Source: Isurus oxyrinchus (taxonomy: Eukaryota). Taken from it: 64,000 nt of DNA. Where the stretch lies: positions 6,324,001 through 6,388,000 of the forward strand of contig JANJGN010000034.1 of assembly GCA_026770705.1 (NCBI GenBank). Reading direction: 5' to 3'. The translations under genes were made by a program, and so were the position numbers. The notes beneath the pieces are model-generated. The model made no database searches. It had not been told where the DNA came from and saw nothing but the letters and a program-made list of their open reading frames with translations. Positions 1,657-61,891 of this stretch are shown here, piece by piece. Every line of letters starts with the position of its first letter. Position 1 is the first letter of the stretch.

Positions 1657-1683
1657 ATCGAAAATTGAGCTATAAGGATACTG
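1657..1683 (+). CDS. Microexon, 27 nt (xRKLSYKDT)
   Basis: tttcaatcag|ATCGAAAA...GATACTG|gtaagt. Confidence 0.8.
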
Positions 1684-61600: not shown

Positions 61601-61891
61601 ACCACGGGAGCTGAAAGGCCTGCAGAGTGTTTCCAGCGCCTTCCGTTCTCTTTTTTTCATGTTAACTTTGTTCATTTGCTGTCAAATAGGCGATGGTTAA
61701 TCTGCCTACAGTGCTGTGCAGCGCCCCAAAACTTCCCACAGATTCAGTGAGGGTACATTGGCTAATGGTATAAATTAAACATTGGCCGAGAAAAGATAGA
61801 ACTCTGTCTGTTTTGGATTAAATTGTTATTCAACTCAATCATAAATCCTCTTCCCATTTAGAGCTTGAGGACAAGCTACGAAATGCCGGAG
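1657..61891 (+). CDS. Partial multi-microexon gene encoding a long heptad-repeat coiled coil (>=25 exons); family unresolved (butyrophilin/BG-like tail or CD23-like stalk are candidates)
   Basis: 25 exons of 24-36 nt with AG acceptors and GT/GC donors, all phase 1-1, splice into an open frame: x[173 protein letters not shown] (gap?) [75 protein letters not shown]. No start or final stop identified. Confidence 0.85.
2129..2167 (+). ncRNA. Minimal hammerhead ribozyme motif (CUGUCGA variant)
   Basis: AGTT-CTGTCGA-T-GGGTC-ATGAG-GACTC-GAAAC-GTC-AACT. Confidence 0.6.
2129..2230 (+). mobile_element. Penelope-like terminal repeat fragment
   Basis: Matches the terminus of the GIY-YIG-bearing element at 39995-40850 in reverse orientation. 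Confidence 0.8.
2290..3520. mobile_element. Cluster of CR1 LINE fragments (+ 3' end, + RT fragment, - 3' end)
   Basis: Degenerate WI..WL..RKQR-type RT motif at ~2910-2950; FYFYTEV...[13 protein letters not shown] on -; attctatgattcta tail at ~2680. Confidence 0.65.
3960..4680 (+). mobile_element. CR1 LINE 3' fragment
   Basis: ttggttaggccacacgtagagta (LVRPHLEY-like); EER...LRG..IE region; typical tail. Confidence 0.75.
4970..5130. repeat. (CT)n/(CA)n microsatellite mix
   Basis: Visible dinucleotide runs. Confidence 0.85.
6101..6136 (+). CDS. Microexon, 36 nt ([12 protein letters not shown])
   Basis: aatcccccag|AATGCC...ACTAAAG|gtatct. Confidence 0.75.
7790..8230 (-). mobile_element. Old Penelope-like terminal remnant
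   Basis: Degenerate match to the 39995-40500 terminus. Confidence 0.55.
8972..8998 (+). CDS. Microexon, 27 nt (DLALAKKDK), GC donor
   Basis: ttgttcctgttag|ACCTTG...GACAAAG|gcgagt; peptide resembles exon 16398. Confidence 0.75.
9780..10095 (+). mobile_element. 3' tail of an abundant non-LTR retroelement; related copies at ~6560-7330, 20430-20765, 21050-22170, 33470-33770, 39550-39895, 42320-42725
   Basis: Shared tail ...caagggcaattaggga..aataaatgctggcc..ccac..ccc..aa recurs across the window. Confidence 0.75.
10469..10504 (+). CDS. Microexon, 36 nt ([12 protein letters not shown])
   Basis: tttccctaacag|AATTAG...GACTGTG|gtgagt; near-duplicate of exon 17452. Confidence 0.88.
13278..13333 (+). 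repeat. (CAT)n microsatellite
   Basis: catcattatcatcatcatcatcatcatc...; source of the poly-I/poly-M ORFs. Confidence 0.9.
13675..13701 (+). CDS. Microexon, 27 nt (EESVSTQNK)
   Basis: ttgcccattacag|AGGAAA...AACAAAG|gtaagc. Confidence 0.8.
15092..15127 (+). CDS. Microexon, 36 nt ([12 protein letters not shown])
   Basis: ttccttccctgaag|ACATTC...GATCAAG|gtgagc. Confidence 0.85.
16398..16424 (+). CDS. Microexon, 27 nt (EQEMAKKDK)
   Basis: ttattcctattag|AACAAG...GACAAAG|gtaata. Confidence 0.85.
17452..17487 (+). CDS. Microexon, 36 nt ([12 protein letters not shown])
   Basis: ctctttccccaag|AACTGG...GACTGTG|gtgagc. Confidence 0.88.
17560..17930 (+). mobile_element. CR1 LINE 3' end
   Basis: [18 protein letters not shown]...RGYKFNVRG; ttttacccagagggtagtg (FTQRVV). 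Confidence 0.85.
19010..19390 (+). mobile_element. CR1 LINE 3' end
   Basis: FFIQTVVGF...[13 protein letters not shown]. Confidence 0.75.
23141..23167 (+). CDS. Microexon, 27 nt (EGKIKLQAN)
   Basis: tttttgttcacgcag|AAGGAA...GCGAATG|gtgcgt. Confidence 0.78.
25660..25735. repeat. (CT)n/(ATCT)n microsatellite
   Basis: Visible runs. Confidence 0.85.
26395..26430 (+). CDS. Microexon, 36 nt ([12 protein letters not shown])
   Basis: tctgcattccag|AATTGA...GAATTAG|gtaaga. Confidence 0.85.
27112..27138 (+). CDS. Microexon, 27 nt (ESKLKNMEK)
   Basis: tttttcatccacag|AATCGA...GAGAAGG|gtattt. Confidence 0.8.
27480..31160 (+). mobile_element. Long degenerate CR1 LINE ORF2 (endonuclease to 3' tail) with nested insertions
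   Basis: VGEFN (GDFN), [15 protein letters not shown] (PGPD..HP), [44 protein letters not shown]; interrupted at ~28090-28590 and ~28950-29140. Confidence 0.85.
28950..29140. mobile_element. Inverted pair of Penelope-like terminal repeats with a decayed hammerhead (29017-29056, -)
   Basis: aaacaaaaacagaattatctggaaaa is mirrored by ttttccaggtaattctgtttttgtttt; core CTGTCGA with GAAA changed to AAAA. Confidence 0.75.
31345..31710 (+). mobile_element. CR1 LINE 3' end
   Basis: [18 protein letters not shown]...ENLWN..; aatggcctactcctgctcct tail. Confidence 0.8.
35240..38490 (+). mobile_element. Long degenerate CR1 LINE ORF2
   Basis: [70 protein letters not shown]; 3' tail at ~38490. Confidence 0.9.
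35725..36530 (-). mobile_element. Younger CR1 3' portion inserted antisense into the older CR1
   Basis: VIHFGRSN...[29 protein letters not shown]...[31 protein letters not shown]. Confidence 0.9.
39244..39279 (+). CDS. Microexon, 36 nt ([12 protein letters not shown])
   Basis: cttctaattccag|ATGGAG...GACTTGG|gtaggt. Confidence 0.8.
39995..40850 (-). mobile_element. Penelope-like element 3' part: GIY-YIG endonuclease remnant plus terminal repeat
   Basis: [35 protein letters not shown] / [18 protein letters not shown]...[26 protein letters not shown] with a frameshift; decayed hammerhead at 40055-40095 (CTGTTGA). Confidence 0.92.
41144..41170 (+). CDS. Microexon, 27 nt (ENKLKEKVK)
   Basis: cctctcaacag|AAAATA...GTGAAAG|gtaaat. 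Confidence 0.82.
41283..41309 (+). CDS. Microexon, 27 nt (ELESKVPFE)
   Basis: cttgttttttag|AACTGG...TTTGAAG|gtgagc; 112-nt intron after exon 41144. Confidence 0.82.
41550..41910 (-). mobile_element. Penelope-like terminal fragment
   Basis: High similarity to 39995-40290. Confidence 0.85.
41646..41684 (-). ncRNA. Minimal hammerhead ribozyme motif (CUGUCGA variant)
   Basis: Reverse complement AGTT-CTGTCGA-A-GGGTC-ATGAG-GACTC-GAAAC-GTC-AATA. Confidence 0.6.
42930..42956 (+). CDS. Microexon, 27 nt (DEAIREKNE)
   Basis: pyrimidine tract...gagaaacag|ATGAGG...AATGAAG|gtaata; an in-frame acceptor 6 nt upstream is also possible. Confidence 0.78.
43726..43761 (+). CDS. Microexon, 36 nt ([12 protein letters not shown])
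   Basis: ttttctctctccag|AAATTG...GCAGCAG|gtcaga. Confidence 0.85.
44365..44598 (-). pseudogene. H4: Histone H4 pseudogene, 5'-truncated (residues ~26-102), two in-frame stops
   Basis: Minus strand reads [75 protein letters not shown]. This aligns without gaps to H4 [77 protein letters not shown]. Stops at 44521-44523 and 44395-44397. Confidence 0.95.
44599..45000 (-). mobile_element. Non-LTR retroelement 3' fragment (same family as 9780-10095) abutting the H4 pseudogene
   Basis: [15 protein letters not shown] / [16 protein letters not shown]...[16 protein letters not shown]; last ~90 nt of the family tail absent. Confidence 0.7.
45472..45498 (+). CDS. Microexon, 27 nt (EEKLAKLMK), GC donor
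   Basis: aatgaacag|AGGAGA...ATGAAAG|gcaagt, the consensus GC donor. Confidence 0.75.
45950..46520 (+). mobile_element. Degenerate CR1 ORF1 (esterase-like) remnant
   Basis: tttggttcatgggacactggcaccaa reads WFMGHWHQ, resembling CR1 ORF1. Confidence 0.5.
47590..48025 (+). mobile_element. CR1 LINE 3' end
   Basis: [28 protein letters not shown]; typical tail. Confidence 0.8.
48857..48895 (-). ncRNA. Minimal hammerhead ribozyme with canonical core, in a Penelope terminal fragment (~48795-49080)
   Basis: Reverse complement AGTT-CTGATGA-A-GGGTT-ATACA-GACTC-GAAAC-GTT-AACT; stems I and II pair; stem III is palindromic. Confidence 0.7.
49670..51245. mobile_element. Cluster of old Penelope-like terminal remnants (two -, one +)
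   Basis: Repeats of ggaaa..cag..ggtct..catctgtggagagagaaacag..ttaa; reverse copy at ~51140-51245. Confidence 0.6.
51330..52340 (-). mobile_element. Degenerate PIF/Harbinger-like DNA transposon remnant
   Basis: GC-richer block; [18 protein letters not shown] and SR..I..IIG...LP...VT.L resemble HARBI1-type transposase N-terminus (recognised from memory). Confidence 0.5.
52914..52943 (+). CDS. Tentative microexon, 30 nt ([10 protein letters not shown]); not counted in the 25
   Basis: tttctaattcataaag|TGAATA...AGTATAG|gtgacg; phase 1-1; lies where a second-type exon is expected. Confidence 0.35.
53140..53645 (+). mobile_element. CR1 LINE 3' end
   Basis: cacttcacactcggttctgg; [11 protein letters not shown]. 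Confidence 0.7.
54188..54214 (+). CDS. Microexon, 27 nt (EEQLRKKMI)
   Basis: ctataattacag|AGGAAC...ATGATTG|gtaaga. Confidence 0.82.
55452..55478 (+). CDS. Microexon, 27 nt (ELEHLKVKC)
   Basis: tgtgtatctag|AACTTG...AAGTGCC|gtaagt. Confidence 0.78.
56757..56783 (+). CDS. Microexon, 27 nt (QKDLEEKDL)
   Basis: ccttttctttttag|AGAAAG...GACTTGG|gtaaaa. Confidence 0.82.
56935..56970 (+). CDS. Microexon, 36 nt ([12 protein letters not shown])
   Basis: gctttccacag|AACTCC...ATTGGAG|gttggt. Confidence 0.82.
57935..57961 (+). CDS. Microexon, 27 nt (EAENCADNE)
   Basis: pyrimidine tract...gaggaacag|AAGCTG...AATGAAG|gtatca; flanks resemble exon 42930. Confidence 0.72.
58748..58774 (+). CDS. Microexon, 27 nt (ELQMLRQKY)
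   Basis: catttcttctag|AACTTC...AAATACA|gttgag; weak donor, but the peptide matches the series. Confidence 0.68.
59215..59960 (-). mobile_element. L1/Tx1-clade LINE 3' end, degenerate
   Basis: [17 protein letters not shown]...[10 protein letters not shown] resembles the ORF2 C-terminus; AT-rich 3' UTR follows. Confidence 0.65.
60040..60390 (+). mobile_element. CR1 LINE 3' end
   Basis: [23 protein letters not shown]. Confidence 0.8.
60427..60450 (+). CDS. Microexon, 24 nt (IDACIKLL)
   Basis: tctccatctccatag|TTGATG...CTTCTAG|gtaagc. Confidence 0.72.
   Translation: MMPVSNF
61862..61891 (+). CDS. Microexon, 30 nt ([10 protein letters not shown])
   Basis: cttcccatttag|AGCTTG...GCCGGAG|gtagga. 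Confidence 0.78.

Follow-up and report, generated by a model that had tools for sequence, protein, structure and literature searches.

A candidate giant micro-exon gene with a terminal B30.2 exon in the mako Isurus oxyrinchus

Among the described systems that come closest to the locus reported here, an array of micro-exons of the mako (Isurus oxyrinchus) that leads into an exon for a B30.2 domain, are the chicken BG genes, whose tails are encoded, in the account given in PMC4046983, by 13 to 36 exons of 21 or 24 nucleotides (nt) and accompany an immunoglobulin (Ig) V domain (IgV) and a transmembrane (TM) segment. According to the same account, the "zipper protein", which is the tail of one BG protein, regulates the actin-myosin interaction. 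A survey of butyrophilins that includes cartilaginous fishes mentions, in the portion on which we draw, only variable numbers of heptads (PMC12841164). Among TRIM proteins, avidity binding through paired B30.2 domains is described for TRIM20 and discussed for TRIM5 in the relevant part of PMC4455283. Two further accounts, each used here in part, concern the micro-exon genes (MEGs) of Schistosoma, which consist of symmetric exons of at most 36 nt that can be skipped in frame and are restricted to schistosomes (PMC8293314), and human titin, with 363 exons (PMC11931755). The DNA analyzed in the current study is a stretch of 64,000 nt (the window) on contig JANJGN010000034.1 (C34), running from C34 6,324,001, which is window base 1, to 6,388,000. 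The initial annotation of this stretch took the gene to span window positions 1657 to 61891. The real array covers about 1 Mb and comprises more than 320 exons; the whole 64-kb window is interior to the candidate gene and holds less than one-tenth of the array. In the literature searched, which covered few subscription papers and no supplements, we found no description of a rod-B30.2 family of this kind.

Extent of the array and selection on its exons

The array reaches at least 924 kb upstream of the window, to C34 5,399,738. Sequence was read upstream to C34 5,399,001 (1.03 Mb overall), where exons were still present, and the array starts beyond that point. The firm set comprises 324 exons (9,543 nt, 3,181 codons) over 986 kb, with a median intron of 1.6 kb, and about 305 of these micro-exons lie upstream of the window. 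The prevailing lengths are 27 nt (168 exons), 36 nt (121 exons), and 15 nt (26 exons), and 322 of the 324 are symmetric exons of at most 36 nt, which is the architecture of a micro-exon gene. Nine weaker exons and two exons further upstream stand outside the firm set (326 are counted with the latter two). The exon model used for this purpose was trained on 142 seed exons, and the firm set was assembled from 288 exons left after overlap resolution, 2 with GC donors, 2 accepted by conservation, and 32 accepted by homology. Over about 1 Mb, and with overlaps unresolved, the model gave 324 candidates above 10 bits on the forward strand versus 4 on the reverse strand, a comparison that controls for chance and not for over-fitting. 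Because the model alone overlooked 2 of the 14 exon classes of the reference repeat unit, the true number of exons is probably higher than the present count.

That phase-1 symmetric micro-exons encode a long heptad rod, as was proposed at the outset, is borne out by the selection acting on them, by a hydrophobic period of 3.5 residues, and by exon junctions that are free of stops without having been constrained to be so. None of the 332 junction codons (from the 324 firm and 9 weaker exons), which the exon model left unconstrained, is a stop, and 283 of them encode Glu or Asp; the exon bodies were required to be stop-free, and their freedom from stops is therefore by construction. In the joined peptide of 333 exons (20% K, 15% E, 15% L, 10% D, 3.9% C, and 0.4% P), the power of the hydrophobic period peak at 3.5 is 1.10, and shuffling the residues lowers it to 0.20, shuffling the order of the exons to 0.38. 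Since the power falls once exon order is shuffled, it is the order of the exons that preserves the heptad register. In 87 to 92% of cases, the 36-nt exons have a hydrophobic residue at positions 2, 5, and 9, and 55 of the 121 encode Cys at position 5. The three-heptad unit of 9 plus 12 amino acids (aa), on which attention had originally centered, does exist, but it is only one module among several; the others are 15-nt exons, 27-27 pairs, a 36-27-27-27 arrangement, and a higher-order repeat of 14 exons and 130 aa, and the composition of modules differs between zones along the array. Modules of 14, 17, 18, and 39 residues break up the 21-residue unit, which would imply stutters or hinges. With a coiled-coil rise of 0.1485 nm per residue, the rod predicted from all exons (more than 3,100 residues) would measure about 470 to 480 nm as a parallel coiled coil.

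A block of about 28 kb with 14 exons (390 nt, 130 aa) is present in about ten copies at C34 5.885 to 6.17 Mb, and this repeat provided a test of selection that is free of the exon model's forward-strand training bias. Twelve exons of one unit were mapped by alignment onto nine units, the resulting pairs not being independent of one another. No AG or GT difference was seen in 1,712 pairwise comparisons; one exon copy is gapped at the donor, with GT still present. The exons carry no indels and have diverged by 7.6 to 10.4%, versus 16.1% for the introns, and pN/pS is 0.62. The 108 repeat exon copies contain no stop, where 10.9 were expected (0 of 5,000 simulations were as low), and no AG/GT substitution, against a neutral expectation of 27 broken splice sites. 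Because the repeat copies lack stops and AG/GT substitutions against these expectations, we conclude that the micro-exons of the array are under purifying selection. The exons tested sit 200 to 500 kb from the B30.2 exon.

The array has grown as blocks of exons and introns were duplicated in tandem. Since all exons are phase 1-1, a block can duplicate, vanish, or be skipped without a frameshift. Turnover inside the array is evident from two dead exon copies, at C34 5,764,781 and 5,840,779, one of which has lost the AG and the other both AG and GT, with a stop gained. Such dead copies, taken together with a B30.2 exon that is barely more conserved than the introns when set against a close relative, could be read as marks of chance splice-like motifs, of a decaying pseudogene, or of a repeat array. 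We regard this as extremely improbable, given the strand asymmetry of the candidates, the lack of stops and the invariant splice sites across repeats that have diverged by 16%, and a B30.2 frame that is open in all five copies on C34.

The terminal B30.2 exon, its relatives, and its paralogs

The array ends 8 kb downstream of the window in an in-phase terminal exon (C34 6,395,819 to 6,396,339, forward strand, phase 1, with the stop codon) that encodes a B30.2/SPRY domain of 172 aa. It is preceded on the same strand by a 27-nt exon candidate at C34 6,395,161 and, between this and the window, by a 21-nt candidate at C34 6,392,663; further candidates at window-equivalent positions 75406, 77366, and 77572 lie beyond the B30.2 stop and were dropped. 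The terminal exon matches Pfam SPRY (E 2e-13), and its best match in the PDB is the B30.2 domain of BTN3A1 (E 7e-20), with TRIM58 about as good (E 4e-19). A C-type-lectin end in the manner of CD23, one of the options considered initially, is thereby replaced by a B30.2 end. The expectation of informative exons in the flanks was met in part, by this B30.2 exon; no IgV or TM exon was found up to C34 5,399,001.

Searches for other domains gave few matches. By tblastn with 12 V-set, Ig C (IgC), RING, B-box, and B30.2 proteins over the 1.03 Mb, the terminal exon was the sole match. No second B30.2 domain was found between C34 4.817 and 6.396 Mb among the best 150 of 455 candidates. BTN-type IgC (PF22705) was likewise not found at C34 2.7 to 7.5 Mb (37 matches in the genome, 110 of 110 candidates scored), in a search that a very divergent IgC could escape. 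There was no IgV in the 990-kb array or in 11 relatives of the B30.2 domain (a genome V-set search covered 150 of 3,319 candidates), no RING or B-box within the array as read to C34 5,399,001 or in the relatives scanned, and no TM segment in the rod, where the maximum 19-residue hydropathy is 0.34. In the 42 kb behind the gene, where the duplicate described below possibly starts, no Ig or TM exon was recognized on the forward strand. A hydrophobic 115-nt "TM exon" at C34 5,483,091 was discarded, as its acceptor tract is poor and, judging from its translations, it is the antisense of a long interspersed nuclear element (LINE)-like reverse-transcriptase remnant. Upstream, at C34 4,817,018 to 5,404,001, no micro-exon patterns were among the matches listed, in a search of low recall (the last pattern recovered 5 exons in the 5′-most 330 kb) that leaves the start of the array unfixed.

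Among single-domain database entries, the nearest relatives are chondrichthyan models that bear TRIM39/58/69-like, A33-like, or butyrophilin-like names. They include XP_038671249.1 from catshark ("zinc-binding protein A33-like," 945 aa), XP_055510696.1 from skate ("TRIM69-like"), XP_042191566.1 from elephant shark ("TRIM58"), XP_069775384.1 from electric ray, and XP_060706632.1 from epaulette shark ("BTN3A1-like"). Ten of the 11 relatives come from sharks, rays, or a chimaera (one via its cluster), and the early suspicion of a mis-annotated cartilaginous-fish family proved sound in that models of this clade go under TRIM or butyrophilin names. Pfam finds SPRY only, or a weak PRY, in the 11 relatives, and no Ig. 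Alignment of the 945-aa catshark model with the rod gave E 4e-12, and a reversed control gave no match; a single-sequence fold of the catshark relative, helical at low confidence (pLDDT 55, pTM 0.26), was not used as evidence. The isoforms annotated for three relatives differ by internal cassettes of 6, 7, or 9 aa, which, as annotation goes, fits micro-exon skipping. No longer homologs were found with the bare B30.2 query at E 1e-20 among 534 candidates. Atlas look-alikes consist of chordate rod-plus-SPRY clusters with representatives of 1,277 to 1,802 aa and no common Ig family, and they may or may not belong to the clade.

In a quick maximum-likelihood tree of 64 B30.2 domains, taken from our own search matches with most multi-B30.2 and very long proteins omitted, this gene and the 11 relatives form one clade of 12 rows (SH-like approximate likelihood ratio test [SH-aLRT], 100), the XP_ models being placed there directly or through cluster representatives. 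The clade is separate from the remaining rows (9 Ig, 28 TRIM-type, and 15 of other kinds) and does not nest among Ig- or RING-bearing B30.2 domains; the tree is midpoint-rooted and does not fix its sister group. Since neither a BTN-type IgC nor a place of its B30.2 domain among those of Ig- or RING-bearing proteins was found, the gene was not filed as BTN, BG, or TRIM. It combines a B30.2 domain of this clade with a K/E/L/D heptad rod and no other Pfam domain, as a member of a rod-B30.2 family should. A butyrophilin- or BG-type membrane protein, with IgV (perhaps IgC) and TM exons upstream of C34 5,399,001 and with the array as its expanded cytoplasmic tail, would account for the small heptad exons, for the layout of heptads followed by B30.2 (both of them BG/butyrophilin features), and for BTN3A1 as the best PDB match; in addition, the array starts beyond the sequence read, and the V-set search scored only part of its candidates. 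We nevertheless think such a protein unlikely, in view of the complete scoring of IgC candidates, of the absence of Ig from all 11 relatives (0/11), of a B30.2 domain that groups apart from those of the 9 Ig-bearing proteins and matches TRIM58 nearly as well as BTN3A1, and of the 42 kb behind the gene.

A colinear duplicate of the whole gene of about 1 Mb lies on the forward strand at C34 ~6.49 to 7.497 Mb, about 1.087 to 1.10 Mb downstream; its B30.2 domain is 92% identical, and it has a higher-order-repeat run of its own at 7.01 to 7.16 Mb. Three further B30.2 exons on C34 belong to the regions 4.30 to 4.817 Mb (forward strand), 3.74 to 3.474 Mb (reverse strand), and 3.28 to 2.709 Mb (reverse strand) and are 58, 44, and 45% identical, respectively. 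Micro-exon motifs lie on the same strand upstream of each, so these three paralogs probably are large genes too. Between the gene and its duplicate, at C34 ~6.416 Mb on the forward strand, we noted a G-protein-coupled-receptor-like remnant, which may resemble GPR139-type genes. On contig C21, related exons for B30.2 (38 and 35%) and four 36-nt exons of a similar kind occur at 89.72, 89.89 to 89.94, and 91.35 Mb; this contig holds a large SPRY/butyrophilin-IgC cluster and is a possible cradle of the family. On contig C12, 22 pattern matches resembling 36-nt phase-1 exons occur on both strands at 53.73 to 54.04 Mb. Their peptide is a Gly/Glu/Leu/Val-rich repeat unrelated to the rod, and they may be either a repeat or another pair of micro-exon genes.

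The lengths of the annotated relatives (129 to 945 aa) and of the atlas look-alikes, as well as the different modules carried by different zones of the array, would suit a locus in which several promoters or alternative blocks give shorter rod-B30.2 proteins (300 to 1,800 aa), or in which the upstream blocks are separate transcription units. An arrangement of this sort seems to us improbable. It is at odds with strong selection on exons so far from the B30.2 exon, with the register that is kept by exon order, and with the colinear duplication of the ~1-Mb unit, and within the array neither a further B30.2 exon, among the best 150 of 455 candidates, nor an exon for any other domain was detected.

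One skate model among the relatives opens with a short hydrophobic stretch. In P0066, an unrelated protein that belongs to another B30.2 clade, a hydrophobic N-terminal stretch is followed by a rod of repeats and then by the B30.2 domain, which may amount to a type II membrane architecture. These two proteins, and the Cys residues at core position 5 of the 36-nt exons, are what could be cited for a protein that is either secreted or a type II membrane protein and whose rod is extracellular and disulfide-linked, with the B30.2 domain in the place of the lectin head of a CD23- or CD72-like molecule. We consider this very unlikely. N-glycosylation sequons are not in excess in the rod (8, versus 10 expected), reading through acceptor tracts may have produced the hydrophobic starts of relatives, and in BTN and TRIM proteins the B30.2 domain is cytosolic.

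Exons of the window

Within the window, a generic splice-site scan gave 71 splice-flanked candidates of 9 to 120 nt on the forward strand and 62 on the reverse strand, with 12 and 1 of these, respectively, having lengths of 27 or 36 nt (binomial P, 5e-9). Twenty-four exons were rebuilt, all on the forward strand, of which 19 are firm and 5 weak; they amount to 723 nt and 240 stop-free codons. The 25 exons and 249 codons of the initial annotation were thus approached without being reproduced exactly, and its estimate that micro-exons make up ~1.2% of the span agrees with the 1.2% that we measured. On inspection, the open reading frames of at least 150 aa in the window were repeat-derived or held nothing relevant.

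The first 13 exons follow the strict alternation of 27 and 36 nt originally reported for them and are stop-free when joined, provided that an exon with a GC donor is allowed. In window coordinates, the 27-nt members are 1657..1683 (phase 1, firm, with an intact paralogous copy), 8972..8998 (firm, the GC donor in question, with GC likewise in its paralogous copy), 13675..13701, 16398..16424, 23141..23167, and 41144..41170 (all firm), together with 27112..27138, which is firm by homology and has a weak donor. The 36-nt members are 6101..6136, 10469..10504 (firm, with 3 intact paralogous copies), 15092..15127, 17452..17487, and 39244..39279 (all firm), and 26395..26430, which is firm and whose distant duplicate is the dead copy at C34 5,840,779. 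Exon 6101 has a weak score (4 bits), yet an intact duplicate about 40 kb upstream supports it. Beyond the alternating series lie firm 27-nt exons at 41283..41309, 54188..54214, and 56757..56783, a 27-nt exon at 42930..42956 (alternatively 33 nt with the acceptor at 42924), firm 36-nt exons at 43726..43761 and 56935..56970, and a firm 30-nt exon at 61862..61891. Four possible exons are weak: 45472..45498 (27 nt, GC donor), 53078..53104 (27 nt, good splice sites and an atypical peptide), 59989..60018 (30 nt), and 60427..60450 (24 nt, strong splice sites and a middling model score). In the intron after exon 61862, a degenerate, purine-rich tandem array of 35-nt repeats (~38 copies) occupies positions 62598 to 63859; it was excluded from the exon set.

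The heptad assignment made earlier for the 21-residue unit holds at most positions. Residues 4, 11, 14, and 18 are L, I, V, M, or C in 7/7, 5/6, 6/6, and 5/6 units, respectively (23/25 overall), and position 21 is hydrophobic in 4 of 6. Position 7, in contrast, is hydrophobic in only 1 of 7 units, with Lys in 3; its place agrees with the 3-4 spacing, yet it does not contribute a hydrophobic residue to the core.

A candidate gene and its described counterparts

Building on the observed micro-exons, their phase and selection, the heptad period, and the terminal B30.2 exon, we propose that the array and this exon form one giant gene for a soluble cytosolic rod-plus-B30.2 protein of skipping-tuned length, and we judge the chances of this to be about even. 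At least 324 micro-exons over about 1 Mb would be transcribed as one transcript into the B30.2 exon. The rod would then form a parallel coiled coil, likely dimeric, that presents paired B30.2 heads, and these might use avidity to bind a protein target, in the manner of the B30.2 pairs of TRIM proteins. The rod itself could serve as a spacer or tether, its length being varied by exon skipping and block duplication, and the product, devoid of E3 and Ig modules, would be a scaffold or a pattern-binding protein. We favor a soluble cytosolic form because the relatives have no Ig or RING and none has a clear TM segment. An immune role is a guess, drawn by analogy from the expansion of paralogs and from the relatives of the domain.

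Several observations weigh against this proposal. The exon model was trained on the forward strand. Paralog alignments of window exons (n = 8, one dead copy included) diverge by 12.6% in exons versus 14.9% in introns, and in the DNA of a close relative (~5% diverged), pieces lying over the B30.2 exon differ by 4.0 to 6.0%, versus ~4 to 5% for introns, among the rows listed. (Four sequence runs over the 3′ end turned out to consist of genomic DNA from that relative, covering introns and lacking GT-AG joints; they say nothing on expression.) The annotated relatives in the clade are only 129 to 945 aa long; several start abruptly, and for that reason may be fragments. The rod holds 128 Cys residues, many at a core position, which is odd for a cytosolic rod, and it may be segmented, because modules of 14, 17, and 18 residues break the register. 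Lastly, an Ig, TM, or signal exon could lie upstream of C34 5,399,001, beyond the sequence read.

A bolder version of the one-gene proposal is tentative, and we are inclined to doubt it: a single gene of ~1 Mb, with more than 363 exons, nearly all of 15 to 36 nt, might produce length-variable, B30.2-tipped rods of ~0.5 μm that act as a chondrichthyan-specific, anchor-free ruler or tether, with its reach set by combinatorial micro-exon skipping together with ongoing block duplication. If made at full length, the protein would rank with the longest known coiled-coil proteins and carry a recognition domain at its end, and this in the most ancient lineage of jawed vertebrates that has adaptive immunity; giantin and CENP-F are long coiled-coil proteins with which it may be compared. 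The array also offers a natural test case for the definition and splicing of hundreds of consecutive micro-exons and for the growth of a rod through frame-symmetric duplication. Gene callers appear to recover only the B30.2 end, under the misnomer of TRIM or butyrophilin, and a multigene family of megabase size can in this way stay nearly invisible to them.

The chondrichthyan models share with the mako gene the B30.2 clade, a K/E/L/D rod plus SPRY only, and isoform cassettes of 6 to 9 aa; they are much shorter (none of those found exceeds 945 aa), carry automatic names, and, where scanned, have no RING, B-box, or Ig. The Schistosoma MEGs, which the mako gene matches in exon architecture, differ from it in being unrelated proteins without the rod-plus-B30.2 layout, and they have far fewer exons than the mako array. 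Titin, also an unrelated protein, serves as a yardstick for exon number only; its exons are of ordinary size and encode Ig/Fn3 domains. With the C-IV TRIM proteins (TRIM5, TRIM20, and TRIM21), the mako protein would have in common a coiled coil that positions paired B30.2 domains, going by the portion of PMC4455283 on which we rely. However, the C-IV TRIM scaffold is short and antiparallel, and the mako array is one in which no RING or B-box was found. To our knowledge, no TRIM protein has a coil that arises from an array of micro-exons.

The likeness to butyrophilins lies in heptads followed by a C-terminal B30.2 domain, as outlined in the parts of PMC4046983 and PMC12841164 used here. Butyrophilins have few heptads, whereas the mako rod has about 450, and the mako B30.2 domain forms a separate, long-stemmed clade. 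With chicken BG, the mako gene shares a long heptad tail derived from many tiny frame-preserving exons. It differs in an array of more than 320 exons of 27, 36, or 15 nt, in its terminal B30.2 domain (the description of BG in PMC4046983, as far as it was used, mentions none), and in that no Ig was found. Seen against these systems, the mako array extends the heptad micro-exon principle of BG and butyrophilins about tenfold and brings the number of exons near that of titin.

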